From: Geotalea uraniireducens Rf4
GTDB taxonomy: Bacteria > Desulfobacterota > Desulfuromonadia > Geobacterales > Geobacteraceae
Assembly (NCBI RefSeq): GCF_000016745.1
Contig: NC_009483.1
Coordinates: 930,001 to 962,000 of the forward strand
DNA: 32,000 nucleotides
Direction of reading: 5' to 3'
The position numbers and the translations under genes are program-made. Below are positions 2,031 to 29,070 of this stretch, piece by piece (positions within the stretch are counted from its first letter, which is position 1; every line of letters begins with the position of its first letter). The notes under the pieces are model-generated. The model was not told the origin of the DNA. It searched no databases and worked only from the letters and a program-made list of their open reading frames with translations.

Positions 2031-3434
2031 TCAGAATATGACTTGCGTCCTCAATCCCATGACAACTACATTGTCTGCGACTTTGTCGGCCAGCGGGTTG
2101 ATCATATACTGGAAATGGGGCGATACCGCAATCTGGTCGCTGACCTTTACCCTGTAGTATGTCTCCATCAGTTTCTCCTGGGCGGAAGCGCCGTTGACCA
2201 GGATCTGGCTGAAGCCGAAACCGACAAGGTCATCCTTACGTTGCGGAATGGGGCCGGCATACTGGAATCCGGCGCTCCAGGCGGATTTTGTTTTATATGC
2301 AGCATCGTCATGCCAGCCGTAGCGGCCGAAAAGGGTAATCTGTTCGCTTATCTGCTGGTCGATGCTCACACCGAAGCCGAAGGCGTTCTCCTGTACAAGC
2401 TTGAGTCCGCCAGGCAGGGAGCCGTCCAGGCTGCCGTAAAGCCGGTAATTTCCCTCCAGTTCCCCGAGCTTCTGCTTGTAGTCCAGTTCCACGATGCCGT
2501 AGCCGTGGTCAAGGATGTTGGCCGCCGTGGTGTCGCCGCTGCCGTAGCCGATGCCGAAGGTAATCTGGTCGCTCAGCCTTGCATTTACACGCATTCCCGG
2601 TCCGTAGGACGGAGCACCGAGGACTGGCGAGTTGACGAAAGCACCGGACAGGAACTGGCTGTTCTCATTATTGGCAATGCTGTTGTTGTCAAAATAGTCG
2701 GTCAAGCCGATCTTGCCGATCGTGAAGATGAGCCGGTCATTCATGGCCGTGTGCTCGACCCAGGCGGTTCGGAAGCGTACCGTGTCGGTCGGAGCCAGCG
2801 GGACGTTATTGAGGATGGAATAATTACCGATATGGGAATCGATGCCGGAGCCGCCGGTGGCTTCCACGTCAATCACCGCAATGGTGTTCTCCCCGACCTT
2901 GAAGTCGAAAACCAGGTCGGCCCTGCCCACTGCATCGATGAAATCTTTCGGCTTATTGCCCGCGGAGCCCTGCAGCACGCCGGTCATCCCGCCGCTCATG
3001 GTGATGTTCCTGGTGATGGCATGGAGGTTTGTCCCCAGTTCGGTGTAACGGGTCTGGAAGGCGCGGGACTGGGCGAGGAGCATCTCGCCCCGCAGCTCTT
3101 CCTTCAGATCGCTCAAAATGGCCAGGTCTTCCCTGTCAATCGCCCCGGCACCTTCCCTGGCGGCCTTTTCGGCCATCTTTTCCGTCAGCAGCTGCACCGC
3201 CACCGCAACGTCAAGGCGGTTGAGCAGGCATTGACCCTCGACAAACTCCTTGGTGAACAGCCCCTCGACCTGATACTTCTTGCCAAGACGCATGATCTCC
3301 TGGCAGGCTTTATGGCCGGATGCGACTTTTTCCGGCAGGACAAGCTCCGGGTGCATGGCAAATGCGGACGATACGGCACACAGTAAAAAGATAAATACCG
3401 ATAACCAGACTGCAACATGCTGCTTGCCTTTCAT
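2031..3434 (-). CDS. outer-membrane porin (OprB/carbohydrate-porin-like beta-barrel with an N-terminal coiled-coil segment)
   Basis: ORF-track frame 2031..3488. The preferred start is the ATG at 3434 (MKGKQHVAVWLSVFIFLLCAVSSAFA is a signal peptide), preceded by GGAGGAG. The sequence has an alternating beta-strand pattern, is rich in aromatic and Gly residues, and ends in ...GLRTQVIF with the terminal Phe typical of OM barrels. The family assignment is from memory of OprB-like sequences. Confidence 0.7.
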   Translation of the reverse strand: MKGKQHVAVWLSVFIFLLCAVSSAFAMHPELVLPEKVASGHKACQEIMRLGKKYQVEGLFTKEFVEGQCLLNRLDVAVAVQLLTEKMAEKAAREGAGAIDREDLAILSDLKEELRGEMLLAQSRAFQTRYTELGTNLHAITRNITMSGGMTGVLQGSAGNKPKDFIDAVGRADLVFDFKVGENTIAVIDVEATGGSGIDSHIGNYSILNNVPLAPTDTVRFRTAWVEHTAMNDRLIFTIGKIGLTDYFDNNSIANNENSQFLSGAFVNSPVLGAPSYGPGMRVNARLSDQITFGIGYGSGDTTAANILDHGYGIVELDYKQKLGELEGNYRLYGSLDGSLPGGLKLVQENAFGFGVSIDQQISEQITLFGRYGWHDDAAYKTKSAWSAGFQYAGPIPQRKDDLVGFGFSQILVNGASAQEKLMETYYRVKVSDQIAVSPHFQYMINPLADKVADNVVVMGLRTQVIF

Positions 3435-3507
3435 ATACTCCTCCATTGCATATAATTTGTGAGCGGACAGCCCCACATTCAAGATCAACTATTCCTGTTC
3501 AGGTTCA

Positions 3508-4554
3508 TCAGGCCACCTGTTTCCGCTTTTTCAGGAGAAAGCCGCTGAAGAACGACAGCGCAAGAGTCATCAGTGTGCCGATGATTCCCGCGACGCTGGT
3601 GCCAAGATTGCTCCCGCCTTTCATTTTCTTTCCACCCTCAGGATTCCCCCCTGCATTCTCACGTTCAGCAGGCTTCCTGAATGCATAGTCCGGCAGGAAG
3701 GCGGTCTTTTGCTGCAGTGCGGCCAACGTCCCGTGAAGTCCCTTCTCCGAACCATTCAGCTCTTCTTTTCCCGTTACCTTGGCAATGGCCCATTCCAGGC
3801 CATCGGGGTTTTTCGAGGCAAACCAGGAGACAATTCCACCTGTAAGGATGGCCGCGGCCAGGAAAGCCAGCAGTACGTTGCGCACCGGATGGTTGCCGAT
3901 AGTGCGGGCTTCCATGGCGCCCTGGAGGATTTCTGGGCGGGCCTTGTACACGAAAGACACCACCGCGACAGTCACAAACCCTTCCACAATTCCGATCGCC
4001 AGGTGAATCGGCTGCATCAGGAGCACGAACGTGGCGAACGGCAGTTCGGAGATACCGGAGAAAAGAGTTTCCAGGACGACGCCGAATGGCCCCAACTGTA
4101 ATCCGACAACGGCCGCGATCATGGTTGCCGCTGTCAGACGCGTTTGGCTCGGATTGTTGCCGACTATTTTTTTGTAGATGAACGGGTATGCGATGAACGC
4201 CGGGAAAAAACCCATATTGAAAATATTGCATCCCAGGGCCAAAAGGCCGCCATCGGCGAAAAACAGTGCCTGCACGACCAGGACCGACGCAATGGTGAGG
4301 AAGGCGGCGTAGGGGCCGAGAAGGATAGTCAGCAGGAGTCCTCCCCCCAAATGGCCGCTGGAACCGGTAGCCGGAATAGTGAAGTTGATCATCTGCGCGG
4401 CAAAGAGGAATGCTCCGAGCACCCCCATGAGCGGCACCTTGCGGTCGTCCAGCTCAGAACCGACTTTTGCTGAACAATAGGCAATGGTGCCGGCTGAAGC
4501 CGCCCACATGGTCCCCCCAACCGCCGGTGATAAAAGCGCGTCTGCCATATGCAT
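3508..4554 (-). CDS. cbiM: CbiM/NikM-type metal (Co/Ni) ECF-transporter substrate component fused to a PDGLE domain
   Basis: ORF-track frame 3508..4635. The ATG at 4554 gives an N-terminus of MHMADALLSP, the Met-His N-terminus typical of CbiM/NikM, and lies 8 nt after AAGGAGG. The protein is polytopic, with a literal PDGLEW motif followed by a C-terminal TM helix. No CbiQ/CbiO genes are adjacent. Confidence 0.8.
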   Translation of the reverse strand: MHMADALLSPAVGGTMWAASAGTIAYCSAKVGSELDDRKVPLMGVLGAFLFAAQMINFTIPATGSSGHLGGGLLLTILLGPYAAFLTIASVLVVQALFFADGGLLALGCNIFNMGFFPAFIAYPFIYKKIVGNNPSQTRLTAATMIAAVVGLQLGPFGVVLETLFSGISELPFATFVLLMQPIHLAIGIVEGFVTVAVVSFVYKARPEILQGAMEARTIGNHPVRNVLLAFLAAAILTGGIVSWFASKNPDGLEWAIAKVTGKEELNGSEKGLHGTLAALQQKTAFLPDYAFRKPAERENAGGNPEGGKKMKGGSNLGTSVAGIIGTLMTLALSFFSGFLLKKRKQVA

Positions 4555-4807
4555 GGTCATATCCTCCTTTTTGTCGTAACACGGATTATATAAAAGTAGC
4601 ACGAAACGAATACAAAAATAATTTAAGTATGTCAATAAGTATTTGAGTATTTTTATGGGCGTCGGTTCGGAAGGGGCATTGTATTCACAGAGGGCGGCCG
4701 GCGTTGTAAACGAAAACCGGGGGAAAAGCGTTATTTAGTAGTTGACCATCAGCAGACGATTTGCAATAGTTACAAAAAATTCATCCGGCAGGGTGTGGAG
4801 GGTGGTA

Positions 4808-6490: not shown

Positions 6491-6620
6491 GGATGCCTCC
6501 TTATGCTGTTTTGAACGGTTAAGAGCATAGCGGCTTGCCCGCCCTTCTTATCTCTTGCATAGGCTCGACAGAGGCGGCAGCTAAAGCCGCAGGGCGCAAT
6601 CAGCGTCGAGTTTGTTGTTA

Positions 6621-7232
6621 TCATGACATTGGTTGTCTGACAATAATTTTCCACTTTTCCGGTGCTACTCGTCTTAAATCGCTTAAATATATTTCGTGGT
6701 GTTTACCAACCCTGCGACTGCCGTTGTTTTCTATGAACAAATGCACATTCTCAATGGTTGGCCCTTCCTCTGAGAAGTGTCCAATATGCATTGTTTGCGC
6801 GGCCTTTCCCTCCTTGAAAGATTCAAACCTTACCAACGGCAGGGAAACAGGCTTTTTCTTCCTTGCCACTTCTTCCATTGCTTCTTTAACCATTTCTCGC
6901 GTAATGAACTCCGGTTGCATAATCATCAATGTCCATTTCCAGACATCCTTGTTTCCTGTACTGAATGCGGACATGTCATCAGCCCACCAAAGAGCTTCGA
7001 GTGGCAATACAGCATAGTCGACACCCATCTCTCCTTTTTTGACCATGAACTTCAGCGTGTAGGAAACCGGATAGAGAGCTTCGATCGCATCACTGAATGA
7101 TTGCGAGGTGTTTGGATCTCCCTCACCATCAACCATGAGGAAGTTCATTTCCGGGACATCGACGCGGACAATTTCCTTGGCCGAAGGCTGATATAGGTGT
7201 TTTAACGTTTTCTTTAAGTCCATCTTCTCCAT
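6621..7232 (-). CDS. GyrI-like small-molecule-binding domain protein
   Basis: The 203-aa ORF has an AAGGAGG RBS. Motifs NFLMVDGEGDP, LEALWW, TLMIMQPEFIT, MHIGHFSEEGPTI and HHEIYLSD are typical of the GyrI-like/SOUL-like family. Confidence 0.8.
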   Translation of the reverse strand: MEKMDLKKTLKHLYQPSAKEIVRVDVPEMNFLMVDGEGDPNTSQSFSDAIEALYPVSYTLKFMVKKGEMGVDYAVLPLEALWWADDMSAFSTGNKDVWKWTLMIMQPEFITREMVKEAMEEVARKKKPVSLPLVRFESFKEGKAAQTMHIGHFSEEGPTIENVHLFIENNGSRRVGKHHEIYLSDLRRVAPEKWKIIVRQPMS

Positions 7233-7488
7233 GGAATCCTCCTTATGATGGTCAACGAGTAAGAATTCTGCATCTGGGGCGCATACGGATTGCTATCCTT
7301 GCTGAACCCTGATAAACAGGATAAGTGCGTTAACGAAGTTATTTCCTGCCAGAAAAGCGCAGAAAATAATTTCTAACTCACTAATGACAGCATTGTAGCA
7401 CCTGAACGGAGGGTGCGCTATTCCGTGCTTGCTATTATTGCGTCTCAAATTACTCAATTTTACTCAACCACCGCACCTTGTGGTCTTT

Positions 7489-8325: not shown

Positions 8326-8439
8326 ACTATAGTAAGACAGCCAGATGAAAGTCAACTATACTGTTCATATCCACACGAAAAGGAGCACGCATATGATCCG
8401 TACCCATAAACAAGAGATCGTTGACCAAGAGGCACAGCC

Positions 8440-9243
8440 ATGAGCGATTTTTCCACCATTGCCTCCTTCTACAGAGAGAAGTCCCTGGTTCAGGCCAATG
8501 CGGGCAAACAGCTTATCGAACTACTGGAGATCGCGCCCGATACCGATATTCTCGATGTCGGCTGCGGCACCGGCAACCTGACGGCAGAGCTGCGCGAGAT
8601 TACCTCCGGCCGCGTGGTCGCCATCGACCCGGCCGAGGGGATGATCCGGCAGGCCCAAGCCCTTTATGGCAGCCAGGATATCGATTTCCGCATGGCCGAC
8701 GGCGATGCGCTGCCGTTCGACAACGAATTCGACCTGATCTTTTGCAGCTCGGTCTTCCAGTGGTTCCGGGAGCCGGCCGCCACCCTGGCGAACTTCGCGA
8801 AGGCGCTCCGTCCGGGAGGGAAGGTCGGGATACAGGCCCCGGCCACCAGCCGATTCTGCCCGAACTTCCTCGCAGCCATCGCACGCTGCCGCCGGGCGCC
8901 ACGGCTCGCCACCCTGTTTGCCGGATTCCGCTCTCCTTGGTTCTTCCGCGATTCGATCCACGAATACCGGACGCTGTTCGAGCAGGCCGGTTTCATCGTC
9001 ACCCACTGTCGCATCGACGAGACGCACCAGCGCTATACCGTGGACAAAGCCATCGACATCTTCAACTCCGGCGCGGCCGCAGGTTTTCTCAATCAGTCGT
9101 ACTATGCGGAGCCGCTACCGGCAGATTTCATTGAGCTGGTTTTGGAAGAGGTGAGGGCATCGTTCGAGGAACAGGCCGACGCTTCAGGGGAGATCGACCT
9201 GGTCTTTTACCGGCTTTTTGCGGTGATGCGGAACGTGGTGTGA
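8440..9243 (+). CDS. class I SAM-dependent methyltransferase
   Basis: Motif I ILDVGCGTGNLT, then FDLIFCSSVFQWF and LRPGGKVGIQ. The gene is divergent from the AraC regulator. Confidence 0.85.
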   Translation: MSDFSTIASFYREKSLVQANAGKQLIELLEIAPDTDILDVGCGTGNLTAELREITSGRVVAIDPAEGMIRQAQALYGSQDIDFRMADGDALPFDNEFDLIFCSSVFQWFREPAATLANFAKALRPGGKVGIQAPATSRFCPNFLAAIARCRRAPRLATLFAGFRSPWFFRDSIHEYRTLFEQAGFIVTHCRIDETHQRYTVDKAIDIFNSGAAAGFLNQSYYAEPLPADFIELVLEEVRASFEEQADASGEIDLVFYRLFAVMRNVV

Positions 9244-9427
9244 TGGTTCAGGGAAAGAGCTACGGAGCGGCATAAACCGGGCCGTTTGAAACCTTGCTGG
9301 AGTGGGATTTCATGGCGAAGGGAGAAGAGGCTTTGAAAAGAAAATTTTGAGCTATTTTTTTCTTATCCCATTTTGCAACATTGCAAGCCTGACCCGAGAT
9401 TTCGAGATTTTTCCCTATATTTGCAGG

Positions 9428-9455
9428 TTGACTTTGTACGTCACTGCCGTATAAT
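9428..9455 (+). promoter_or_regulatory. near-consensus sigma70 promoter driving the toxin-remnant/antitoxin locus
   Basis: TTGACT (9428-9433), a 16-nt spacer, then TATAAT (9450-9455). The ATG at 9462 is only 6 nt after the -10 box, so the transcript would be leaderless or nearly so. Confidence 0.55.
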
Positions 9456-9461
9456 CGGTGC

Positions 9462-9576
9462 ATGGTAACTTTTGTCGAATCGCCGCTGTTTACGAAGCAG
9501 GTTCATGATTACCTGACCGACGACGAGGACGATTCTCAAAACCCTCAAAGAGGAGATGGAACATGCGACTCAGTGA
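9462..9576 (+). pseudogene. internally deleted RelE/HigB-2-like toxin remnant
   Basis: The first 21 codons, MVTFVESPLFTKQVHDYLTDDE, resemble the N-terminus of HigB-2/RelE-type toxins encoded upstream of XRE antitoxins. From 9532 a different frame reads ILKTLKEEMEHATQ*, a plausible toxin C-terminus overlapping the antitoxin start. The 115 bp in total are roughly one third of an expected toxin gene. Confidence 0.45.
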
Positions 9577-9874
9577 AAAAGAACTGCTCGAACGCGATGC
9601 AAAACGTAACATCGGCGAGGAACTTCTCCAGGCTGTGCGGGACATAAAAGCTGGCAGGGTCGGGCGTGTTTCCACCATAGATGTTTCTCCCCTTGCGGCG
9701 GCCCGTCTCAAGATCGGCCTTTCTCAGAGCGAGTTCGCTCATTTGCTGGGAGTGTCTCTCCGAACCCTCCAGGAGTGGGAGCAAGGCCGTCGCACGCCAT
9801 CAGGCGCCGCGAAATCCCTCATCACCATTGCCATCAAGAAACCGGAAGTTCTAAAAGAACTGCTCGCCGCCTGA
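9563..9874 (+). CDS. XRE-family HTH antitoxin (HigA-2/NadS-like)
   Basis: RBS AGAGGAG. The HTH is LKIGLSQSEFAHLLGVSLRTLQEWEQGRRTPSGAAKSLI. The N-terminus MRLSEKELLERDAKRNIGEELLQAVRDIKAG is typical of this antitoxin family. Confidence 0.8.
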   Translation: MRLSEKELLERDAKRNIGEELLQAVRDIKAGRVGRVSTIDVSPLAAARLKIGLSQSEFAHLLGVSLRTLQEWEQGRRTPSGAAKSLITIAIKKPEVLKELLAA

Positions 9875-10014
9875 GGTTTCGAAAGCCATATTGTCCCTGT
9901 TGAGCCAACCTATTTATCCTCCTGCAAGCTGCGGGAGTTGACCAGACTGTTTTTCGGACCGGTCCAACTTCTTGGTTTGAACCTCGAATTTTACTTTTGT
10001 CTCGTGTCAAGGGC

Positions 10015-10046
10015 AGACCCCTTATAGCGCTGACCACTTATGGCGC
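10015..10046 (+). repeat. tandem pair of REP-like 16-mers (TGACCCCTTAT.GCGC family)
   Basis: AGACCCCTTATAGCGC followed by TGACCACTTATGGCGC, 13 of 16 identical. The same TGACCCTTAT core occurs at 16612-16649 and, inverted, at 15568-15580 and 19408-19482. Confidence 0.6.
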
Positions 10047-10065
10047 TTCATTTTCGGAGTAGAAT

Positions 10066-10314
10066 TCAGGCAGCACGCCCCATCTCTTCACGGATAACCT
10101 TGCGCAGGGTCTCTTCAAGATTGCCTGAATCCTTCGAGAGGTACTCTCGCAAAGCATCATTAATCAATGTCTGATACCCTTTGCCTGCCGCATCTGCACG
10201 AACACGGAACTCCTCGAGAATGGCGTCGTCAAGATAAATGGTAATCCGTGTCTTACCGGTTTGCGGCACAACAGCGCCACGCTTTGCTTTGGAAAAATCG
10301 TATTCAGCTTTCAT
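10066..10314 (-). CDS. brnA: BrnA-type antitoxin (CopG/RHH-like)
   Basis: MKAEYDFSKAKRGAVV ... TRITIYLDDAILEEFRVRADAAGKGYQTLINDALREYL is the characteristic BrnA pattern. It overlaps the stop of the upstream toxin gene by 11 nt. Confidence 0.85.
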   Translation of the reverse strand: MKAEYDFSKAKRGAVVPQTGKTRITIYLDDAILEEFRVRADAAGKGYQTLINDALREYLSKDSGNLEETLRKVIREEMGRAA

Positions 10315-10580: not shown

Positions 10581-10609
10581 ATTGTATGTATTTTATATGC
10601 ATATGTCAA
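10581..10609 (-). promoter_or_regulatory. sigma70-type promoter of brnTA with a palindromic candidate operator
   Basis: The minus strand has TTGACA (10609-10604), a 17-nt spacer containing the palindrome ATATGCATAT, then TACAAT (10586-10581). The -35 box overlaps the MFS stop codon. Confidence 0.55.
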
Positions 10610-11892
10610 GGGTTGCCCCCACTGCCTCTCTGCACTTCTGACGCCGTCGCGGGCGTCGCATGGTGCTCGCTGCGGAAATGAAAATACGCCAAGGCCAGCG
10701 ATGCGGCTTGAAGCAGGGCGCAAAAATAGAACGGCGCGCCGATGCGCCAATCGCCGCGCTGCAAATGGGAAACCGTCGCAAGCAGCGGCGTGCTGAACAA
10801 GGGGGCCACTACCGCCATCAGGCTGTTCAGGGAGTTGACCGCCCCCAACGCCTGCCCCTGGCTTTGGGAGTCGGCGGCGCTGGAAATTATGCTTTGCAGC
10901 GACGCAGTAACCGTATAGCTAAGCAGATTCAGGAAGATTACTGCGTACATCATCCAGCCCTGGTTGGCTATGCCCCACAATATGTAGGCGATCGACGACG
11001 ACGCCAGTCCGGCAACCACAAGGCGTCGCGGACTAAAGCGTTTCAGCAGCCGTCCGAGCAGAAAACCCTGCACGACCAACGACATGATGCCGACCGCTGC
11101 GAGCGACCAGCCGTTTTCACGCGGTCCCCAGCCGAACTTGAAGGTCGTGTACAACACCCAACTGGTGAACAGCACGAATTGGGCAAGTCCGCTCAACGCA
11201 ACCACGGCGACCAATCGGCCGACACCGCTCAGCCGGGTCAGCGCGCGTAGCGACACGAGCGGGTTTGCCATCCGCCAGTGGAATGGGCGCCGGCGCTCGG
11301 CAGGGAGCGACTCGGGTAACACAAAATAGCCGTAGAGCCAGTTAATCATTGCAAAGGCGCCGGCGACGAAAAACGGGAGCTGTATGGTGATTGCGCCCAG
11401 CAGCCCGCCCATCACCGGCCCGACGATGAAGCCAACGCCGAACATCGCGCCCAACATGCCGAAACGCCTGGCACGCTCTTCGGGAACGGTGATATCCGCC
11501 ACATACGCGTTAGCCACGGCCGCATTGGCCTGCATCGCACCGCCCACCAGCCGCACCGCAATCAGCATCCACAACGCCGTGGAGAGCCCTGTTGCGAAAA
11601 AATTGAGGCCGAGTCCGCAAAAACCGAGCAAGAGCAACGGGCGGCGACCGTAAGCGTCGGACAGCGCACCGAGGATCGGCGAAGCGAAAAAATTCGCGAT
11701 TCCGAACGCGAACACCACGACGCCATACCAGAACGCCTGATTTGCTTGTGAGTCGGTGAAACTTCCGACCAACGACGGCAACACGGGAATGATCAAACCG
11801 ATAGACACCATGTCGATCAGCACGGTCAACATGATGAAAGGCATGGCCGCTGTGCGGTCGCGACGGGGCGAAAATAATTTGAAATTAATCAC
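10606..11892 (-). CDS. MFS efflux transporter, TetA/TCR-like (12 TM)
   Basis: MLTVLIDMVSIGLIIPVLPSLV and GALSDAYGRRPLLLLG (MFS motif A-like) resemble the TetA class. The start is uncertain: GTG at 11892 or ATG at 11844. The first 35 codons or so lie inside the 116-bp duplication. Confidence 0.85.
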   Translation of the reverse strand: MINFKLFSPRRDRTAAMPFIMLTVLIDMVSIGLIIPVLPSLVGSFTDSQANQAFWYGVVVFAFGIANFFASPILGALSDAYGRRPLLLLGFCGLGLNFFATGLSTALWMLIAVRLVGGAMQANAAVANAYVADITVPEERARRFGMLGAMFGVGFIVGPVMGGLLGAITIQLPFFVAGAFAMINWLYGYFVLPESLPAERRRPFHWRMANPLVSLRALTRLSGVGRLVAVVALSGLAQFVLFTSWVLYTTFKFGWGPRENGWSLAAVGIMSLVVQGFLLGRLLKRFSPRRLVVAGLASSSIAYILWGIANQGWMMYAVIFLNLLSYTVTASLQSIISSAADSQSQGQALGAVNSLNSLMAVVAPLFSTPLLATVSHLQRGDWRIGAPFYFCALLQAASLALAYFHFRSEHHATPATASEVQRGSGGNP

Positions 11893-11904
11893 GCTTAAAT
11901 ACTC
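11789..11904. repeat. 116-bp perfect direct repeat, left copy (part of the intact MFS gene)
   Basis: Checked base by base: identical to 16769-16884 at an offset of exactly 4980 bp. The flanking bases differ on both sides (11788 a vs 16768 c; 11905 g vs 16885 t). Confidence 0.95.
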
Positions 11905-11985
11905 GATCCTTTAGTTCGAAAAAAACTACGTCTCCGGCCGTCAAACCTGGAACTGCCCGGATGTCGCCTTTCTTTGTCGCTTCTG

Positions 11986-12042
11986 CCCAATTCGGCTTCG
12001 CAAATGACCTGCACGATTCCGTGTCAGATCAATTTGTTGGTT
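11986..12042 (-). other. degenerate attC-like site closing the RsgA cassette
   Basis: Minus-strand reading: GAACCAAC aaat TGATCTGACACGG aatc GTGCAGGTCA tttgcgaagccga ATTGGGC. It shares CTGAC.CGG, GCAGGTCA and AGCCG..TTGG with the 13261-13329 site. The R'' box CCAAC complements the GTTGG that starts the cassette. The R' box has decayed from GTT to ATT. Confidence 0.35.
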
Positions 12043-12133
12043 CAATCGTATCCTTCTCTTCAGGTTCCAAGAGTTGGAATATTCTTTTGCTTGTAAATGT
12101 GAATATGTGAAGGGCGTCCCCTATGCATCTATC

Positions 12134-13216
12134 TTATTTACGTGTGATTCCCAGATCTTTCTTGGCAGACTTGATGTAGCGACCAAATGCCTTATCCTTT
12201 TTTCGCTTTTCAAGATACGACAGATCATGAAACTCTGATTCACTCCTGAGTTTGATAAAGTTCTGATAGTGTGCCCGATGGAGACTTCCTTCCTCAATTG
12301 CACTCAAAACAGCACAACCTGGTTCGTTAGAGTGAGAGCAATCACTATATTTGCATTTCGATGCTAACGCATAGATATCAGCAAAGCTGTCGCCCATTCC
12401 TTCCTCAGCTCCTAAAATGCCAAATTCACGCATTCCTGGGTTATCTATCAACATTGCACCATTATCCAATATTATGAGTTCGCGACGCACCGTCGTATGT
12501 CGTCCCTCGCCTGTACCACTTACCACCTTGGTTTCAAGTATATGACGGCCAATCAACTGGTTGATCAATGTACTCTTGCCAACCCCTGATGAACCTAAAA
12601 GACAGTAGGTTTTTCCGGGCTGTAGAATTTCACGTACATTATTAACACCTTCGCCGGTGACGTTACTAAGCGCGATTACCTCCGTATTTATTCCAGCACT
12701 TCTAATTTTTTCTATTAGTTGTTGGAGAGTTTCAGGACTGACCAGGTCAGTTTTTGTAAGTAAAACGACAGGATGTACATGCCCATTTCTAACCATTACC
12801 AAGTAACGCTCAAGCCTGTTAACATTGAAGTCGAAATGACAGGCCTGGACTATTAAGGCTACGTCAATATTCGAGGCAATCATCTGGTATTCAATGATAT
12901 CTCCTGCAGCCTTACGACGAAGAACCGACTTTCTAGGAATGACGTCATGAATTATTCCATACATGTCAGAGGTGCTGTATTGAATGCATACCCAGTCTCC
13001 AACACATGGAAGATCAATTGATTGCTCGGTCATATATAGAAAACGGCCGGCAAGCTTTGCGCGAAATTCACCAGACTCATCTATTACAAGAAGTTGATCA
13101 CGATCCACAGCAACAACACGTGCAAGACGGTGTTCTGCCGAGCCCTTTTCATGTGCCTTTGCATCAAACCATTCATCCCATCCAAATTGATTTAGTTGTT
13201 CAGAAGCAGAGCTCAT
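12134..13216 (-). CDS. rsgA: RsgA/YjeQ-family circularly permuted GTPase (cassette-borne paralogue)
   Basis: The motif order G4 LLTKTDL, G1 GSSGVGKSTLIN, G3 DNPGMREF is the RsgA circular permutation. The C-terminal zinc knuckle is CKYSDCSHSNEPGCAV. The preferred start is the ATG at 13216, 7 nt after GAGGT; the track start (GTG at 13261) lies inside the attC R' box. The gene is AT-rich. Confidence 0.8.
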   Translation of the reverse strand: MSSASEQLNQFGWDEWFDAKAHEKGSAEHRLARVVAVDRDQLLVIDESGEFRAKLAGRFLYMTEQSIDLPCVGDWVCIQYSTSDMYGIIHDVIPRKSVLRRKAAGDIIEYQMIASNIDVALIVQACHFDFNVNRLERYLVMVRNGHVHPVVLLTKTDLVSPETLQQLIEKIRSAGINTEVIALSNVTGEGVNNVREILQPGKTYCLLGSSGVGKSTLINQLIGRHILETKVVSGTGEGRHTTVRRELIILDNGAMLIDNPGMREFGILGAEEGMGDSFADIYALASKCKYSDCSHSNEPGCAVLSAIEEGSLHRAHYQNFIKLRSESEFHDLSYLEKRKKDKAFGRYIKSAKKDLGITRK

Positions 13217-13260
13217 TTGACATACCTCAAAATGTACAGATTTTTTTCTCATTACTTTCA

Positions 13261-13329
13261 CGCCAACGGCTCACGGCGTGACCTGCGCGGCGCTGTTTGC
13301 CGCGTCAGAGTCTACGCCGCGGGTTATGC
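13261..13329 (-). other. attC-like recombination site
   Basis: Minus-strand reading: GCATAAC ccgc GGCGTAGAC tctgac GCGGC aaacagc GCCGC gcag GTCACGCC gtgagcc GTTGGCG. The stop codon TAA of the upstream ORF lies inside the R'' box. The 46-nt core differs at 2 positions from the site at 13951-14018. Confidence 0.7.
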
Positions 13330-13935
13330 AATTTTATAAATTATAGGGATAGCTATACCGTAAGCAACTGTAAGTACCCCAAGCGCTTCGGCTTTAACTC
13401 CACCAACAATTGCCGCTTTTAAATTAGTGTTAATTTCATTTATATCAGTTTTGATTGTGTTTATCTTTATACTTATTCTATCTTCAGAAGTCCTAATATC
13501 CCTTTTAAGTTCGTCTCTTGTTTTGTCGATTTTGTCATGAATTCTATTTACTTCTTGCAAGAGAAATTCAACTTTTTCTTCAGTATTTTTATGGCCAGGA
13601 ATCAGTCTTGCGTCGTATATCCCGCTGGCACTGAGAAGGGAATCAACTTGGAGGTTCACAGATTTTTGCTTGGCAATTAGGGGAAACCTCTTCAACCAAT
13701 CAAATATTGAATTTTTGATACTAGTTTTGGATACAATTCCAAGGTTACTATTGATCACCCAAATAATAATTAGGCCACCAATAATTTGAAATGCTGCACT
13801 AAAATTTGAATTTATTATCTGATTGTGAGATTGAAATATTCGTAGTGAGAAGAGGTGCACTGATACAAAAACTGGGAAGAGATGAAGAGGCCATGGTTCA
13901 ATTGACCATTTATATAATCTTTTAATTACCTTCAT
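13324..13935 (-). CDS. hypothetical membrane protein with a coiled-coil middle region (cassette ORF)
   Basis: 203 aa with RBS AGAGGGGAGAA. It has N-terminal TM helices, a charged coiled-coil segment (EEKVEFLLQEVNRIHDKIDKTRDELKRDIRTSEDRISIKINTIKTDINEINTNLK) and a C-terminal TM helix. It is very AT-rich, and I recognise no family. Confidence 0.7.
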   Translation of the reverse strand: MKVIKRLYKWSIEPWPLHLFPVFVSVHLFSLRIFQSHNQIINSNFSAAFQIIGGLIIIWVINSNLGIVSKTSIKNSIFDWLKRFPLIAKQKSVNLQVDSLLSASGIYDARLIPGHKNTEEKVEFLLQEVNRIHDKIDKTRDELKRDIRTSEDRISIKINTIKTDINEINTNLKAAIVGGVKAEALGVLTVAYGIAIPIIYKIA

Positions 13936-13950
13936 TTCTCCCCTCTTTTG

Positions 13951-14018
13951 CGATAACGTGTCGTGGCGTGACCTGCGCGGCGGTGTTTGCCGCGTCAGTG
14001 TCTACGCCGGTGTTGGCA
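13951..14018 (-). other. attC-like recombination site
   Basis: Minus-strand reading: TGCCAAC accg GCGTAGAC actgac GCGGC aaacacc GCCGC gcag GTCACGCC acgacac GTTATCG. It begins 6 nt after the stop of the 477-aa ORF and ends 15 nt before the start of the next ORF. Confidence 0.7.
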
Positions 14019-14023
14019 GCAGT

Positions 14024-15457
14024 CTATTTCCCGGATTTCGCTGTTGCCAAGACACCTACCAAAGATTTTGTCAGAGTCCGTTTTTCGGCACATTCGGATA
14101 TTTTGTCGTATCCATATTTGGTCATCAGGGCGAAAGGAGCGGCGGTTGCAAGAAATGGTGCAAGGGCTGGAAATAAACCAACTCCTGTAGCTGCGATTGC
14201 CATCACAGCAGTTTGGCCGTGAATTCGTCTATATTTTTCCTTTATGTCTCTTTGCTGCTTCTCATGCTCTGCAATTGCAATGGTAATCTCATGGCAGACC
14301 TCTGCTGCAACCTTATCTATATCTGTAAGAACCGATTCATGTAATCTGCCAACGGCATCTTGTAGCCGTTTTCGAAAGCCGACGTTCTCGTTGTCTTCTC
14401 TCAGTCGTATTAATGTATCAATTGATATATCGCCCAGCCAATCAAGTCTCTGAGAGGCGAGAGCTTCAATCAAGGCATTGGTTCTGGGGTTTATTAGACC
14501 AGTCTTTTCGAGTCGGGCATTGTTGGCGGTAGCAACTATCTTGTAATAGTGTGCGTGTTGATCGAGGCACATAAGCGGATGACAACCAAGTTCTTCCGCG
14601 TTTTCTAACAGATGATATTGTGGGGTAAGGCGTTCACAGATCCCGTTAAAGACACGTTGATGCTCCGGGATTCGTGCAAATATATCCAGCCACTCTTTTG
14701 ATCGCCACGTCTCCATCTCCACTTGGTATCGCTGCAATGCATCCACAAGAGGCTCATCAACAGGCCCTCCTGGCGCGACAAAAAGATGATTTCTGTCTAC
14801 GGTTGATAGAAATTTCTCGGGGTTTCGGTTTGCATAATCGAGAACCTCTTCAAGAGTTTCAAGTTTCTCATCAAGGGAGGCAGAGAACACACAACCAATA
14901 AGATGTGAAATCCCATCCTTTGTGTACTCATCTTTATCCTCTAAGATCTTTTCCATGCTCGGGAAAACGAGGACGGCGGGGTTCTGGAAGTTAGCGTCTA
15001 TGAGTGGTTTTATATGCAGGAGAGCATGAACGTTCTGAATTAAAGAGACGTGACGGAATTTTTCTTCCGTTCTTTCACGCTCAAGCCAAGGCATTACGGG
15101 GTCAGGAACGAAAACCGTGTCGCTATACAGGATACTTGTCGAGACAGAGTTCAATTGGCTTCCGAGGAATCGGCTGCCACCACCAAGAACTAATTTCATA
15201 CCGCCAAGCTGCTTTGCTAGGCGGAATGCTTCACCAGCATTCTTTCCATACAGTTGACGGAGTTGCTCTTCTAACCAAACGAAAGCATCCCAACTCCTTG
15301 GCGCAATTTGCTGGGCACGGGAACGAATTGTATCGGCGAAGTTGTCAATAGTACTGAAAGCAGTTGCTGTACTGCCGGTAGCCCTGATAAAGAACTCGTC
15401 AAGGATGGAAAAGAACGTTCGCTCATATTCTGTGATTAGTTTTATTGGGTCTTGCAT
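14024..15457 (-). CDS. hypothetical 477-aa protein with a C-terminal hydrophobic/TM segment (cassette ORF)
   Basis: Long ORF with RBS GAGGAAGGA. The C-terminus TAVMAIAATGVGLFPALAPFLATAAPFALM looks membrane-inserting. I recognise no conserved catalytic motif. AT-rich. Confidence 0.75.
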   Translation of the reverse strand: MQDPIKLITEYERTFFSILDEFFIRATGSTATAFSTIDNFADTIRSRAQQIAPRSWDAFVWLEEQLRQLYGKNAGEAFRLAKQLGGMKLVLGGGSRFLGSQLNSVSTSILYSDTVFVPDPVMPWLERERTEEKFRHVSLIQNVHALLHIKPLIDANFQNPAVLVFPSMEKILEDKDEYTKDGISHLIGCVFSASLDEKLETLEEVLDYANRNPEKFLSTVDRNHLFVAPGGPVDEPLVDALQRYQVEMETWRSKEWLDIFARIPEHQRVFNGICERLTPQYHLLENAEELGCHPLMCLDQHAHYYKIVATANNARLEKTGLINPRTNALIEALASQRLDWLGDISIDTLIRLREDNENVGFRKRLQDAVGRLHESVLTDIDKVAAEVCHEITIAIAEHEKQQRDIKEKYRRIHGQTAVMAIAATGVGLFPALAPFLATAAPFALMTKYGYDKISECAEKRTLTKSLVGVLATAKSGK

Positions 15458-15473
15458 TTCCTTCCTCGATTCA

Positions 15474-15566
15474 TGACAACTCCCTTATTCACCGGTTCAA
15501 CACGCGCGCATGAACCGGTGATCTACCCAAACGGAACATTTAATCTGTGAACATGAACAAAATAGA
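15474..15566 (-). other. class-B boundary element, copy 1 (palindrome-bearing, ends in GTTGTCA at the cassette start)
   Basis: Perfect 9-bp hairpin ACCGGTTCA acacgcgcgca TGAACCGGT. The 46-nt core at 15509-15554 is identical, apart from one position, to 24971-25016. The minus-strand 3' end GTTGTCA is a 6-of-7 complement of the R'' box TGCCAAC of the next attC-like site. Confidence 0.6.
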
Positions 15567-15567
15567 C

Positions 15568-16620
15568 TAAGGGTCAGGTCTACATTCTACACTTTTCAAA
15601 CTTTCCCTTTATCTTCTCGACCTTTCTTCCCAGCACCTCATCCGTCTCCATTTTCCTGACAAGCCTTCTGCTCGCTTCACTTATCGCCGTATCTCGTACG
15701 TTGAAGCGATCTCCTATTTCCTGAAGTCTCATTCCGCTGTATTTATGGCAAAGATAGATGCACACCTGCCTCGCTAGCTTTTCGTTGCCATGCAATGCCG
15801 CTATTGCTTCCTTCATGATTTCTTCCGGCGATGGCCTGTTGGCAAAATGCTTCAGCGCCGGAATATTCGCGTCTTCCTTTTCCCGGATATGCGCCGTTGA
15901 TATTTCATCTATAAAGTCGGCGCTCCCCAATATCGATCCACCGAAGATTTTGCTCAAAGGGCTTTCGTATTCTTTGCCGATCATATTTTCAACAAAGGTC
16001 CTGTACTTTTTCCGAGCGTCCGCTTCTTTCTTTGCAAAGCATCCTAGGATAAAACCGGTTCTCAGCCATGCTGGCGGTTTGCTTTGCCCAATGAAGCTTT
16101 GGTAGCTGGACCATTGGTAGTGCTCTGGCCTTTCGACGATTCCGGCTTTGACCGGGTTCAGGTGTATGTAGCGGGAAAGCTCCGCCAGGTATTCATCGGC
16201 CTCGACAAGGATCGCCTTGTATCTACCCTGGAACAGATGACCCGACCTCTTTCTTTTGACGTTGAAGTAGGTCGTGTATGCCCCGTTTATGTGTCGCATT
16301 ATCTGCGATAGGTTACCGGATGGTGTTTCCAGCAACAGATGGTAATGGTTGCTCATCAAACAATAGGCGTGAACTACCGCCCCGTACCGCTCCGTTGCCG
16401 ATGCAAGATATTCAAGAAACTTCTCCCGATCCCTCCGGCTTTTGAATATGTCCTTCTTTTCATTCCCACGCGACGTGACATGATAAAACGCTCCCGGATA
16501 CTCGATGCGTAAAGGTCGTGCCATTGCTCTCTCCTTTGAGCGATTGAGTGTAACGTATGGAGTTGCCCTCTATCATATCAAAGAATTCTGGTTTTGTGTA
16601 GAATGTAGACTTGACCCTTA
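15568..16620 (-). mobile_element. compact Y1-transposase element bounded by 25-bp inverted repeats
   Basis: IR-L at 15568-15592 is TAAGGGTCAGGTCTACATTCTACAC. The reverse complement of IR-R at 16596-16620 is TAAGGGTCAAGTCTACATTCTACAC, 24 of 25 identical. A single ORF lies inside, and its last codons are within IR-L. Confidence 0.7.
15580..16524 (-). CDS. IS200/REP-associated (RAYT-like) Y1 HUH transposase fused to a DnaA-domain-IV-like HTH
   Basis: YHVTSRGN, the HUH motif SNHYHLLLE, and the catalytic-Tyr region LSRYIHLNPVKAG. The C-terminal ARQVCIYLCHKYSGMRLQEIGDRFNVRDTAISEASRRL resembles the DnaA C-terminal DNA-binding domain. Confidence 0.85.
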   Translation of the reverse strand: MARPLRIEYPGAFYHVTSRGNEKKDIFKSRRDREKFLEYLASATERYGAVVHAYCLMSNHYHLLLETPSGNLSQIMRHINGAYTTYFNVKRKRSGHLFQGRYKAILVEADEYLAELSRYIHLNPVKAGIVERPEHYQWSSYQSFIGQSKPPAWLRTGFILGCFAKKEADARKKYRTFVENMIGKEYESPLSKIFGGSILGSADFIDEISTAHIREKEDANIPALKHFANRPSPEEIMKEAIAALHGNEKLARQVCIYLCHKYSGMRLQEIGDRFNVRDTAISEASRRLVRKMETDEVLGRKVEKIKGKFEKCRM

Positions 16621-16649
16621 TTGCCCTGTGTGACCCTTATTGCCCTGTG
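16612..16649 (+). repeat. tandem REP-like 19-mers, TGACCCTTATTGCCCTGTG x2
   Basis: Two perfect adjacent copies at 16612-16630 and 16631-16649. The first overlaps the outer end of IR-R. Confidence 0.85.
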
Positions 16650-16768
16650 TTCTTAAAAGCTCCTTTTTACCAGAAAAAACGTGGCTCTAAGGCCATAATC
16701 AGGGCCTATGTTGGCCAATAGATGCTATATTTCAGTTGGTTAACTTGGTCCGACCCCATGGAGACCCC

Positions 16769-16872
16769 ATGATCAAACCGATAGACACCATGTCGATCAG
16801 CACGGTCAACATGATGAAAGGCATGGCCGCTGTGCGGTCGCGACGGGGCGAAAATAATTTGAAATTAATCAC
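16769..16872 (-). pseudogene. orphan 5' fragment (about 35 codons) of the MFS transporter gene
   Basis: It encodes (V/M)INFKLFSPRRDRTAAMPFIMLTVLIDMVSIGLII, identical to the start of 10606-11892. Homology then stops abruptly at 16768. Confidence 0.85.
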
Positions 16873-16884
16873 GCTTAAATACTC
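16769..16884. repeat. 116-bp perfect direct repeat, right copy
   Basis: Identical to 11789-11904. It starts 10 bp after the stop of the radical SAM gene. Confidence 0.95.
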
Positions 16885-16893
16885 TGTATACTG

Positions 16894-18246
16894 CTAATCA
16901 ACTGATAAATGTCCCATCTCGGGATTTTCAGGATTGTTGCCAATACTCGCAAGGCAAATTCCAGCGCAAATCGAGCTGAAGGAGCAGCGGCATCGCTTGG
17001 CCTCGCGAATGGCAACAAATTCCGGTCTATGCCATAGATCCAGAATGCTTGACTCCCTGATACTTCCCGCGACAGTGTCGATAACCGCACATGGTTTGAC
17101 CTCTCCGTGAGAGCTGACGTACATAAGGCTGCGACCAGCCGCACAGCCGTAGAAAGCTGCGTCTGGCGGCACTTTTGTGTATGGAGGAGTGCCTCCAGCT
17201 TCTATTACGAGTTCTCCCTTGAACTTCTCATGCAGCGCATTAACGACTGTCCCTATCTTAGAGCGGCTTCGCTCGCTCAATTGCGGCAAGGATGCTCCCT
17301 TTCCCTTAGGAGTCAGCAAAAGAAAACGGATACTATCCACTTCGAGATCCCTAGCCAGACGAGCGGCGGTTTCCATTCCAGCAGCATTATCATGTGTAAC
17401 GGTGTATGAAATGGTTACCCTTCGTGCGGAATGCGCCTTCAAATATCTGATACTCTGAATGCTTTGCTCAAAAGATCCCTGTCGGCCGACGATGTTGTCG
17501 TGAATGACGGCGTTTGTACCATGCAGACTGACTTGGATAGAATCGAATACTGCTGCCATACGGGCCGCCAGCTTCTCGTCCACCAGCCACCCATTTGTTC
17601 CTACGGAAATGGAGCGAATGCCGGAGAGTCTTGCGACGAGTGCCAGCTCGATAAGCTCAGGGTGGCAAGTAGGCTCGCCACCCATAAATGTAATTGTAGA
17701 TACCCCGATTCGACCTGCCTGCTCCAGGAATGAGATAAGTTCTTCCAGGTTTAGTTCGTCAGGACCGGGCGATTCCGTCGTTACTCGTGAGCAGTGGCTG
17801 CATGCAAGATTGCACGCCGAAGTCAAGTCCAGTTCTATTTTCGTCGGGACCATGGAGAACCAGCTGAGTTCCCCATTTCGGTAAATGGTCCGGTATTGCT
17901 CCCCCTCGTTGAACACCATGAGTACAGCATTATCCTTGCGCACATAACCTATAATTCCTTGCGCGTAATACTGCTCCAACTCACGCATATCAGCTTCCGT
18001 CCTGCAGATCACGCAGGCAGGATTGCCGTGAATCGACTGGATCAGATCCAGGGAATCCAGCAGGTACACACCTTTTGGGCTCTCCAGGCGCCATCCTTCA
18101 TGCATGCTACAGGCATAAAAGGTGTTCTGAAGATACAAGGGCATTGCCGTGCTCGGTAGAGTCGTCCGTTCAATGCTTGCTGTGATGTGTGGTAACCGAC
18201 ACGGGACGAACTGCTCTGAGGTGAATCGAATCATTTGAGCCCTCAT
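16894..18246 (-). CDS. radical SAM enzyme with a C-terminal SPASM-like domain and an N-terminal extension of about 140 aa
   Basis: CNLACSHC is the CX3CX2C radical SAM cluster motif, in the context IELDLTSACNLACSHCS. The C-terminus has GCAAGRS ... GEVKPCAV ... CRCSFSSICAGIC (SPASM/twitch-like Cys cluster). An alternative start is the ATG at 18234, 5 nt after GAGGG. Confidence 0.8.
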   Translation of the reverse strand: MRAQMIRFTSEQFVPCRLPHITASIERTTLPSTAMPLYLQNTFYACSMHEGWRLESPKGVYLLDSLDLIQSIHGNPACVICRTEADMRELEQYYAQGIIGYVRKDNAVLMVFNEGEQYRTIYRNGELSWFSMVPTKIELDLTSACNLACSHCSRVTTESPGPDELNLEELISFLEQAGRIGVSTITFMGGEPTCHPELIELALVARLSGIRSISVGTNGWLVDEKLAARMAAVFDSIQVSLHGTNAVIHDNIVGRQGSFEQSIQSIRYLKAHSARRVTISYTVTHDNAAGMETAARLARDLEVDSIRFLLLTPKGKGASLPQLSERSRSKIGTVVNALHEKFKGELVIEAGGTPPYTKVPPDAAFYGCAAGRSLMYVSSHGEVKPCAVIDTVAGSIRESSILDLWHRPEFVAIREAKRCRCSFSSICAGICLASIGNNPENPEMGHLSVD

Positions 18247-18592: not shown

Positions 18593-18818
18593 AATTTCCT
18601 CCTTTGATTGATGTTTCTGCGTCCATGATTGTGAAATGCTTGCCACCTTCTGTGTTCAACGGGCACCTAAGCCCTTGATACGAGACAAACTGCTGCTCTT
18701 AGTCACTTGTTTTACTGAAATGGCCTGTGTCAAGGTCTGACCCCTCAGCCTCCTTCAAAGACAGGTTCTTAAAGGCAAATGTTATGGGCGTCCCCCTTGT
18801 TATCCCTCTCCGACTGCG

Positions 18819-19407: not shown

Positions 19408-19564
19408 GGCATTCATAAGGGGTCTACCATGCGGTTCATTCAGAAAAACGATTCAAAATCGTCAGGGCATTCATAAGGGGTCAAGCCTTAAAGAGGGAAA
19501 TATATGAAAATATTTTGACAGATTTAAAATTCCCTTTTCAATGCCTGACCCCATTCATTCTGAC
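19408..19564. repeat. cluster of REP-like repeats (GGCATTCATAAGGGGTC x2 plus an inverted relative)
   Basis: 19408-19424 and 19466-19482 are identical 17-mers. 19546-19564 (TGACCCCATTCATTCTGAC) is an imperfect inverted relative. The core TAAGGGGTC relates them to the Y1-element IRs. Confidence 0.65.
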
Positions 19565-19647
19565 TGCCTAATTTGCTACGGAAGAACCTAAGGGGGCAGC
19601 CCTTGGTGCGCCGGTAGGCGGCGGGTCCCCCCCCAGGCGCAACGTCA

Positions 19648-23418: not shown

Positions 23419-23534
23419 ATCCTCTTCTCGTTGCGCCTCTTTAAATGGAAAATGGAGATTGACCCTCCATTCCAGACCAAGTCGTATTAATCCTTACTGG
23501 TTATGTCGCCTTTCGCTTTATTGCCTCTCCATGA

Positions 23535-24419: not shown

Positions 24420-24436
24420 ATCCTTCCCTCGCTTCT

Positions 24437-24496: not shown

Positions 24497-24499
24497 GTC

Positions 24500-28638: not shown

Positions 28639-29070
28639 TCAGAAGAATTCCAGCAGGCTTTCGTCGATCCCCTTGAGTGTTTCGTACCAGAACTCCCGTG
28701 CGGCCTCGACCCTGTCCCGGTCGAACTTTTCGAGCCATTCCCCCAGCCGGGGGTCCTGCTCACGGTCGATCTCCTTTTTCCCGTGATTGTCCGTCGAGAG
28801 GCACTTTACCGGGCAGACCTCGACGCACAGGTTGCAGGTGCAGCACTTAAGCCGGTCGATCTGCCACGCCTTGCTCTCCTTGGTGACAACGATGGCGTAG
28901 GTCGGACAGCGCCTGCCGCACATGCCGCAGAAGATGCACCTGTCGATGGCGTTCTCTATCCTCCCCCGGGTGATGGCGGTAAAAATCCGCTCCCGTTGGG
29001 GATACATGAGGGTGGCCGGCCCTGTGACCAGGTTTTTAGTTACCGTTTTCGTCATCGTGAAAATTTTCAT
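28639..29070 (-). CDS. 2x[4Fe-4S] ferredoxin-type hydrogenase subunit (EchF/HycF/NuoI-like)
   Basis: CIFCGMCGRRCP and CCTCNLCVEVCP cluster motifs. It follows the hydrogenase large subunit directly. Confidence 0.8.
   Translation of the reverse strand: MKIFTMTKTVTKNLVTGPATLMYPQRERIFTAITRGRIENAIDRCIFCGMCGRRCPTYAIVVTKESKAWQIDRLKCCTCNLCVEVCPVKCLSTDNHGKKEIDREQDPRLGEWLEKFDRDRVEAAREFWYETLKGIDESLLEFF

Follow-up and report, generated by a model that had tools for sequence, protein, structure and literature searches.

How does a bacterial chromosome come to carry two perfect copies of the beginning of one transporter gene, the first in place within the intact gene and the second stranded 4980 bp away from it? 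The question is raised by a locus of Geotalea uraniireducens Rf4, which we examined within a window of 32,000 nucleotides (contig NC_009483.1, positions 930,001 to 962,000; all coordinates below are those of the window unless a relative is named). Here a 116-bp repeat, which we call R, brackets an AT-rich insert that holds gene cassettes of the integron type and a transposase-like gene, and the repeated sequence is the 5' end of a gene for a transporter of the major facilitator superfamily (MFS). We favour, on balance and with confidence only slightly better than even, the reading that the duplication is the overlap at which two pre-existing arrangements of the DNA upstream of the MFS gene were joined, through one homologous exchange and one illegitimate joint.

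A repeat search of the 32-kb window returned the two copies of R, at 11789-11904 and 16769-16884, and no other long repeat. They are direct repeats spaced by 4980 bp and identical at 116 of 116 positions, and in the alignment identity falls away directly beyond both ends, just as a sequence-only reading of this DNA had reported. The minus strand carries all genes of the region, in the order radical SAM gene, 9 nt, R, insert, R and MFS gene. We therefore speak of three junctions: J1, between the radical SAM gene and R; J2, between R and the start of the insert (16768 to 16769); and J3, between the end of the insert and the start of R.

The left copy (11789..11904, minus strand) consists of a 12-nt leader and the first 104 nt of an intact open reading frame (ORF) for a TCR/Tet-family MFS transporter (10606..11892, minus strand; 428 amino acids (aa) from a GTG at 11892; Pfam MFS_1, E=2.7e-56). 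The N-terminal extension of this protein, MINFKL.S.R.DRTAA, is kept in relatives, and close MFS homologues are many among the Geobacteraceae. The right copy (16769..16884, minus strand) is an orphan 5' fragment of the same gene, lying 9 nt (and not 10 bp, as had first been counted) past the stop codon of a radical SAM/SPASM gene (16894..18234, minus strand; 446 aa, identified by a profile match). Together with the adjoining insert it forms a fused ORF of 46 codons (16732-16872), the exact peptide of which found no match in the protein collection. The assignment of the left copy to the intact gene and of the right copy to an orphan fragment is thus confirmed, and so is the content of the insert (11905-16768), which comprises 4864 bp with three cassette ORFs and a Y1 transposase gene. 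Its GC content is 0.446 (44.6%), whereas the window has 0.532 and the MFS gene 0.60. Neither hairpins nor other unusual structure in R rose above shuffled controls, Rfam and tRNA scans gave nothing within or near the insert, blastn of the insert against plasmid and phage collections gave no match, and promoter and terminator scans of the insert returned counts equal to those of shuffled sequence.

Read-derived data bear on whether this structure exists as assembled. Logan contigs built at k=31 from four runs (SRR9436595/6 and SRR29904083/4; a literature search for these accessions found nothing) match the window at 100%. They end exactly 30 nt into R, on the radical SAM side (16855) and at the left (11875) and right (16798) of the insert, which implies that reads enter and leave R from two contexts, passing from the radical SAM gene into R, from the insert into R and from R into the insert. 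The contigs cross J2 and J3 unbranched, so that the insert is single-copy in that strain and not a segmental duplication. Mapping of reads over both junctions had been proposed as a check on the assembly, and it is answered in part: junction k-mers occur in all four runs, but an integrated insert and a free circle beside an empty site look alike in a k=31 graph. This equivalence is what speaks for an assembly artefact, in which a free 4.98-kb circle and the empty site would have been threaded into one contig. Against it, the source appears to be a finished isolate chromosome, in which individual reads would be expected to span 116 bp, the insert holds no recognisable replication module besides the separately mobile Y1 unit, and the junction k-mers recur in the four runs. 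We give an artefact hardly any weight.

Two relatives place the locus in context. In L031, a 201-kb MEGAHIT contig whose radical SAM side shares 97-98% identity with the window, the radical SAM gene is followed by 9 nt, a single R (9989-10104) and the MFS gene. This is the empty site: both copies of R in the window align to 9989-10104, with the same end points. A relative in which the radical SAM gene immediately precedes the MFS gene had been named as something to look for, and L031 is such a relative, with one copy of R. The second, L078 (an 11.9-kb Logan contig), carries instead an RsgA cassette, 40 nt, a single R and the MFS gene, and has no radical SAM gene. Its MFS protein is the closest that we found (96.5% aa identity), and blastn aligns the window from 11944 to 10605, which takes in the last 40 nt of the insert, J3, R and the MFS gene, with L078 3538-4876 at 96%. 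The 40 nt upstream of the MFS gene are thus those of L078, and the replacement of its promoter by the insert, which had first been called probable, would be no more than a possibility. Since J3 and 40 nt of the insert are kept there, J3 must predate the arrangement seen in the window. The supposition that the radical SAM and MFS genes were neighbours before the event consequently stands on the strength of the empty site in L031, whereas the idea of an insertion that created two new junctions does not, because J3 already exists in L078.

In a third relative, L032, the MFS gene is preceded by a Fic gene. The upstream edge of the MFS gene is thus a variable hotspot with at least three different neighbours (a radical SAM gene, an RsgA cassette and a Fic gene), and the start of R marks the point at which a haplotype A, with the radical SAM gene, and a haplotype B, with cassettes, become homologous. 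The other insertions and deletions that separate the window from L031 have no long flanking repeats. A scan of GTDB genomes with the radical SAM protein returned only relatives of 22-34% identity and so said nothing about synteny. The exact 35-nt lineage-specific pattern of R had no match in JGI metagenomes, and exact look-ups of a 450-aa version of the radical SAM protein and a 412-aa version of the MFS protein found no record.

The two flanks of the insert differ in their distance from L031 (Fisher p=3e-6): the radical SAM flank is 97.97% identical to it, the MFS flank 95.45%. Over its final 415 nt the radical SAM gene has four differences from L031, whereas R alone has five in 116 nt; R differs from that of L078 at three positions. 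Both copies of R in the window have a private T at position 42, together with T76 and T102, which are common with L078. Among the informative sites of the MFS gene, 44 are shared with L078 and 23 with L031. Judged by these alleles, the right copy of R looks like the MFS-side allele. Such unequal divergence points to flanks with different histories and fits a recombinant origin.

The same comparisons bear on the possibility that the arrangement is old. The duplication might predate the split between the window, L031 and L078 and have been kept identical by gene conversion; L031 would then have lost the insert through recombination between the two copies of R, and L078 would have lost the radical SAM gene and its R by deletion or cassette turnover. 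It is in keeping with such a history that J1 and J3 are each common to a lineage 2-5% diverged, that recombination of R with R would restore a perfect empty site, and that the private T42 is found in both copies. However, it demands concerted evolution of a 116-bp repeat over about 4% divergence without loss of the insert, the L078 sequence runs uninterrupted past the J2 breakpoint and the flanks differ in divergence from L031. It also covers only the timing, so that the origin would still need another mechanism. We consider an old duplication unlikely. Nevertheless, the proposal that zero divergence between the copies implies a very recent event is unsafe, because both old junctions are common to lineages 2-5% diverged and gene conversion could keep the copies identical. 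A recent event and gene conversion would each account for their identity.

J2 is of a different kind from J1 and J3. It was met only in the window, where the comparison with B-type sequence is with a single relative, L078. The start of the insert (16621..16768, minus strand) is a stretch of 148 nt, within which window positions 16705-16758 can be aligned, in inverted orientation, to a stretch of L078 next to parE; the core of this match, 26 nt long (16733-16758), is 96% identical. This alignment ends in GACCCCA, 10 nt short of J2. The remaining 10 nt (16759-16768; TGGAGACCCC) are filler: they make a second copy of GACCCCATG, which runs over J2 and ends in the first three bases of R. The resulting 9-nt repeat, at 16752-16760 and 16763-16771, spans J2, and the overlap at the junction amounts to at most 3 nt (ATG), set within the templated 9-mer. 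By its sequence, J2 looks like an illegitimate joint with partly templated filler. It would also be the sole new junction of the locus, J1 and J3 being found already in other lineages.

Filler with a templated 9-mer also resembles polymerase-mediated joints, and so bears on another explanation, in which a 4.9-kb DNA lacking R was inserted de novo into an A-type site and the 116-bp target was copied on both sides. This would be an unusually long target-site duplication, made by a staggered break, replicative template switching or flap ligation. In its favour, too, are the identical copies, which carry the resident alleles including the private one, and the existence of the empty site in L031. 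Yet J3 and 40 nt of the insert occur in L078 beside a single R and in the absence of the radical SAM gene, which de novo insertion does not account for unless L078 descends from an Rf4-like arrangement, and J3 shows no microhomology. We regard duplicative insertion as distinctly unlikely.

Since J1 and J3 were there before and J2 alone is new, the locus is explained most simply if an A-type and a B-type chromosome were joined by one homologous exchange and one illegitimate joint. Arrangement A would be that of L031 (radical SAM gene, 9 nt, R, MFS gene) and arrangement B that of L078 (cassettes, RsgA cassette, 40 nt, R, MFS gene), and the window would follow A through base 116 of R and would continue as B, beginning at a break in the upstream part of that arrangement. 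We envisage that a DNA fragment from a B-type relative was cut about 4.9 kb upstream of the MFS gene and 116 bp into it, and that its ends may have been joined to give a circle, thereby creating J2. The postulated circle would then have entered an A-type chromosome by a single RecA-type crossover in R, as in Campbell-type integration, the homologous join being placed within or beyond R. Alternatively, one-ended homology-facilitated illegitimate recombination (HFIR) of a linear fragment could yield the same product. Within this general model we prefer the Campbell-type path, though tentatively, for by itself it seems to us appreciably less probable than the model that contains it; a one-ended HFIR event or a variant of double-strand-break repair ranks next. 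The direction of transfer and its timing are parts of the model that we infer.

Both paths have known counterparts. Classical HFIR replaces recipient DNA, combining insertion with deletion, and usually employs microhomology of 3-10 bp. The present locus shares with HFIR in naturally transformable bacteria the single homologous end, the single illegitimate joint and the placing of foreign DNA beside a conserved anchor gene. It differs in that an orphan gene stub remains and in that the joint has filler and an overlap of no more than 3 nt. For the Campbell-type path there is experimental precedent in E. coli: when the incoming molecule was homologous at one end only, duplications of 109-950 bp were carried by 56 of 60 recombinants (PMC3240628). 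Those products were not attributed to HFIR but to partial degradation of the molecule, recircularisation and then a single crossover (Amarir-Bouhram et al. 2011, PMC3240628). The likeness lies in heterologous DNA set between direct duplications of the residual homology (109-950 bp there, 116 bp here) and in the combination of one illegitimate circularisation joint with one homologous exchange. However, the E. coli system involved a laboratory plasmid, whereas ours is a natural chromosome with an inferred circle, and the donor and recipient alleles of R are indistinguishable here. With this precedent, single-crossover integration of a circular molecule, which had been among the mechanisms first suggested, stays the leading one.

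Several observations weigh against a joining of two haplotypes. The copies of R are identical even in the private T42, although a crossover between diverged lineages should leave differences; hence either the R alleles of donor and recipient were the same or gene conversion later homogenised the copies. A simple Campbell insertion of nothing but the insert and R into an L031-like chromosome predicts that both flanks are equally close to L031, as opposed to the 95.45% and 97.97% observed, which favours either that the insert, R and the MFS gene travelled together or that the A-type parent was unlike L031. The comparison comprises one A-type relative (L031) and one B-type relative (L078), and the L078 counterpart of the insert start, besides being inverted, is short, since about 54 nt can be aligned and the core at 96% measures 26 nt. 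Finally, an Rf4-like arrangement could be ancestral to both relatives, with L031 derived from it by pop-out between the copies of R.

Direct repeats at the ends of an island, which reconstitute the target gene, are a classical sign of site-specific integration, and the insert genes have the orientation of the MFS gene. The copies of R might accordingly be the attL and attR of an integrative element that targets the 5' end of the MFS gene and is served by a recombinase in trans. Scans of the insert ORFs with Pfam, NCBIfam and PADLOC revealed no element-encoded tyrosine or serine recombinase, and no ORF scanned across the 32-kb window matched the Phage_integrase family. The Y1 unit is a separate module of 1053 bp that is found in unrelated contexts. 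Furthermore, L078 has J3 with only one R, both copies of R carry lineage-specific alleles and the insert is pieced together from cassettes that have different neighbours in different genomes. A site-specific element is very unlikely to account for the repeat.

The cargo itself is best described in its order on the minus strand. The cassette run is headed by a 'type B' sequence (15475..15557, minus strand; about 80 nt), a degenerate 3' stub of an AraC-family gene, which finishes in a cassette junction, GGTGAATAAGGGAG followed by TTG. The first cassette ORF (14024..15457, minus strand) encodes 477 aa and was assigned to no family; 37 related metagenome loci were found, and the ORF with its attC site is kept at about 79% in L041-L043. 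That site, a2 (13951..14018, minus strand; fold -18.8 kcal/mol, z=-2.7), has an R'' box, GCCAAC, that pairs with the cassette start GTTGGC (L041, L042) and an R' box, GTTAT, that pairs with the R'' box ATAAC of the next site. The second ORF (13324..13935, minus strand; 203 aa) is membrane/coiled-coil-like, belongs to no family and is the sole member of its 90% cluster. It is followed by attC a1 (13261..13329, minus strand), which has boxes of the form AAC...GTT, a DNA fold of -22.7 kcal/mol (z=-3.7) and 81% identity to a2. Both sites form imperfect hairpins, and in each of them three bases bulge out of the 5' arm.

The third ORF (12134..13216, minus strand; 360 aa) encodes an RsgA-like GTPase by Pfam and NCBIfam. 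In six other contexts (L036-L040 and L078) homology to this cassette begins at 13267-13269, a few nt from G|TTGGCG, and stops at or just past the stop codon. Homologues of the cassette (P0241-P0360) make up more than 100 clusters of 65-96% identity in Geobacteraceae and Desulfuromonadaceae, many of them on long chromosomal contigs; the left boundary is always alike and the 3' flanks vary. The GTPase appears to be a successful, and possibly a domesticated, cassette. That the RsgA and MFS genes were ancestral neighbours is ruled out in the Desulfuromonadaceae contig L036, from a metagenome-assembled genome (MAG), where both occur and are not adjacent. Beyond the ORF lies a 175-nt segment (11945..12119, minus strand), bounded by AGG on either side and missing from L078, which includes a weak attC-like hairpin, a5 (11985..12042, minus strand; z=-1.6). 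Its R'' box, AACCAAC, matches the cassette start GTTGG, and in the place of R' stands ATTGGGC rather than GTT. The last 40 nt of the insert (11905..11944, minus strand) end in AAAGGATC, immediately before GAGTATT at J3.

Three lines of evidence lead us to regard this cargo as integron-type cassettes: the complementarity of the R'' boxes, the homology that begins at the boundary of the RsgA cassette and the joint conservation of the 477-aa ORF and its attC. On the first point, cassette starts after G|TT complement their own R'' box, as TTATCG and GCATAAC for the 203-aa cassette, TTGGCG and AACCAAC for the RsgA cassette, and TTGTGT and ACACAAC for a DUF2007 cassette elsewhere in the window. A cluster of attC sites lacking an integron integrase is known as a CALIN. 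As the window has attC sites and no integrase, we describe the insert as a CALIN-type cassette run plus a transposase-bearing unit. Two clear attC sites and one weak hairpin within about 2 kb, G|TT boundaries, the absence of intI nearby and cassettes that occur singly elsewhere all agree with this description, whereas the array here has in addition the AraC stub and the transposase unit. PADLOC gave no match for the cassettes without a family label and only a marginal one (mad8, E=0.008) for the RsgA-like protein.

Genuine cassettes and a Y1 gene invite the further explanation that an integron integrase (IntI) acting at a genomic attG site, or a transposase of the IS1634-like or Y1 kind, placed the insert and left a long target duplication. 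Neither insertion by IntI nor Y1 transposition of the IS200/IS605 type is known to make a target duplication, and in this the locus departs from cassette insertion at attG, as it does in that the borders of R are no crossover sites of an integrase. These borders lack a G|TT or GWT crossover motif, and J3 has no attC next to it, an attC-like hairpin coming no nearer than 80 nt; with neither feature at the break points, an IntI crossover there is ruled out. The ends of the insert (from 11905 and up to 16768) have no terminal inverted repeats, no DDE transposase is encoded and the sole transposase-like gene has its own 25-nt inverted repeats, which are set back from the borders of the insert by 148 nt and 3.7 kb. 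In support of these enzymes it can be said that cassettes are able to insert at 5'-GWT-3' genomic sites and to excise imprecisely (bioRxiv 10.1101/2022.09.11.507474), and that IS1634 and IS1549 make repeats of 8-514 bp (PMC2266710). The statement that 116 bp is far too long for a target-site duplication consequently applies to nearly all elements but fails for IS1634/IS1549. Our locus has in common with these the long direct duplication around an insert, and differs in the lack of a DDE transposase and of terminal inverted repeats and in having one junction already present in another genome. The case against transposition thus depends on the missing element ends and on the pre-existing J3, and not on the length of the repeat. 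We judge an origin by IntI or a transposase highly improbable.

The transposase-bearing unit merits separate description. It spans 15568..16620 (minus strand; 1053 bp) between 25-nt inverted repeats (15568-15592 and 16596-16620) that are 96% complementary, and contains a gene (15580..16524; 314 aa) resembling those of the Y1, or repetitive extragenic palindrome (REP)-associated tyrosine transposases (RAYTs), with a helix-turn-helix of the DnaA C-terminal type at its own C-terminus. The Y1 HUH domain matches PF01797 at E=1.8e-15, and with the NCBIfam model REP_Tyr_transpos (NF047646) the protein reaches 92.1 bits, where 80 is the cut-off. Repeat to repeat, the unit is 94-95% identical to copies between RHS toxin/immunity modules of a Geobacter MAG (L033/L034) and 87% identical in L035; copies lie at L033 9904-10956 and 6006-6979 and at L035 9489-10956, the last of these with tandem partial 5' copies. 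REP-like half-sites (TAAGGGTCARGTCTA) recur just upstream of the unit, both in the window and in L033. Its presence in unrelated contexts marks it as an independent, mobile-like module. It is like a RAYT in its Y1 HUH domain above the REP_Tyr_transpos cut-off, in the inverted 25-nt REP-like sequences that flank it and in the extra half-copies upstream, and unlike one in the added DnaA-type helix-turn-helix and in the recurrence of the whole 1053 bp in unrelated contexts. A mobile unit bounded by inverted repeats that combines a Y1 protein with such a domain is unusual for IS200/IS605. The unit plays no demonstrable part in the duplication.

The 116-bp fragment is not the only orphan piece of a gene in the window. 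The AraC 3' stub, with the motif F-R-x-x-L-G-x-S-P..., heads two cassette islands, at 15475-15557 and at 24939-25019 (95% identical between 15475-15557 and 24962-25019), and the stubs are 93% identical over 29 nt to a real AraC 3' end at 7490-7518. Further AraC stubs occur in L031 (about 6870-6900), L041 (about 6990), L042 (about 110) and L066 (1281-1348). The first cassette after every AraC stub follows a conserved junction, GGTCAATAACGRR and then TTG, the layout of which (an AAC box, a 2-nt spacer and G|TT) resembles an attI simple site, with no intI nearby. Identification of the 'type B' repeat as an attC is ruled out, its outer boxes GTT...AAC having the wrong polarity. The second island belongs to a segment of 5.5 kb (19509-25038) that stands in place of 490 bp of L031 with a 161-aa gene. 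It holds the AraC stub, the DUF2007 cassette, an attC (24437-24496), a DUF2971 cassette, another attC (23347-23418) and a Big_5 repeat protein of 1140 aa. Its two attC sites, a3 and a4, are similar to a1 and a2 by eye, and the DUF2971 protein has weak PADLOC matches to the candidate defence system PDC-S31.

A third kind of stub, at 18673-18752, is an orphan that repeats, at 87.5%, the final 23 nt of an MFS gene together with the 57 nt that follow the MFS gene in L078; it lies upstream of the block of a 97-aa gene and the radical SAM gene, and is found also at L031 8121-8200. It is a second, older gene-end duplication at the locus. The window therefore has three kinds of stub: the 116-bp MFS 5' end, the AraC 3' end at two islands, and the MFS 3' end with its L078-type flank. 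Together they hint that fragments carrying homology move repeatedly in these genomes. It is tempting to speculate that such stubs are footprints of recurrent, integrase-independent movement of cassette islands among Geobacteraceae chromosomes, an island being cut out illegitimately with a piece of a neighbouring conserved gene and re-entering by homologous recombination through the stub, but we hold this wider proposal to be doubtful.

Other differences and features of the window lie apart from the duplication. A 2.5-kb stretch at 7289-9767, with a SAM methyltransferase gene on the plus strand and an AraC regulator gene on the minus strand, is missing from L031 and present in L078. The GyrI-like gene downstream of it (6621..7232; GC about 45%) is kept in the window, L031 and L078, and is followed by an attC-like hairpin without a GTT box (about 6545-6620). 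At 28760-29070, 311 bp missing from L031 supply the 5' part of a 143-aa ORF with a 4Fe-4S ferredoxin domain (28639..29070), and at 19468-19480 an insertion of 13 nt relative to L031 duplicates CCTTATGAATGCC, which is repeated about 50 nt downstream before a 197-aa gene. Tandem cobalamin riboswitches lie at 1437-1611 and 1706-1897 (minus strand; 68 and 110 bits); the nearest scanned ORFs to them, on the same strand and at higher coordinates, encode an OprB-family porin (2031..3488) and a CbiM/PDGLE cobalt-uptake protein (3508..4635).

Taken together, our findings make this locus a well-documented new instance of known processes, namely CALIN-type dispersal and recombination of the Campbell or HFIR type, and not a new kind of element. 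As a natural example it is a clean one, the uninterrupted site and the donor-type arrangement having both been recovered from relatives. It also advises caution, since a perfect long repeat around an island proves, taken alone, neither a new mechanism of transposition nor a very recent event. A reversible polymorphism is to be expected from the structure, in which recombination between the copies of R would release the insert with one R as a circle of 4980 bp. Above all, the locus indicates that general recombination, rather than an integrase of their own, can put horizontally acquired cassette arrays inside an operon and leave behind the duplicated stub of a gene.

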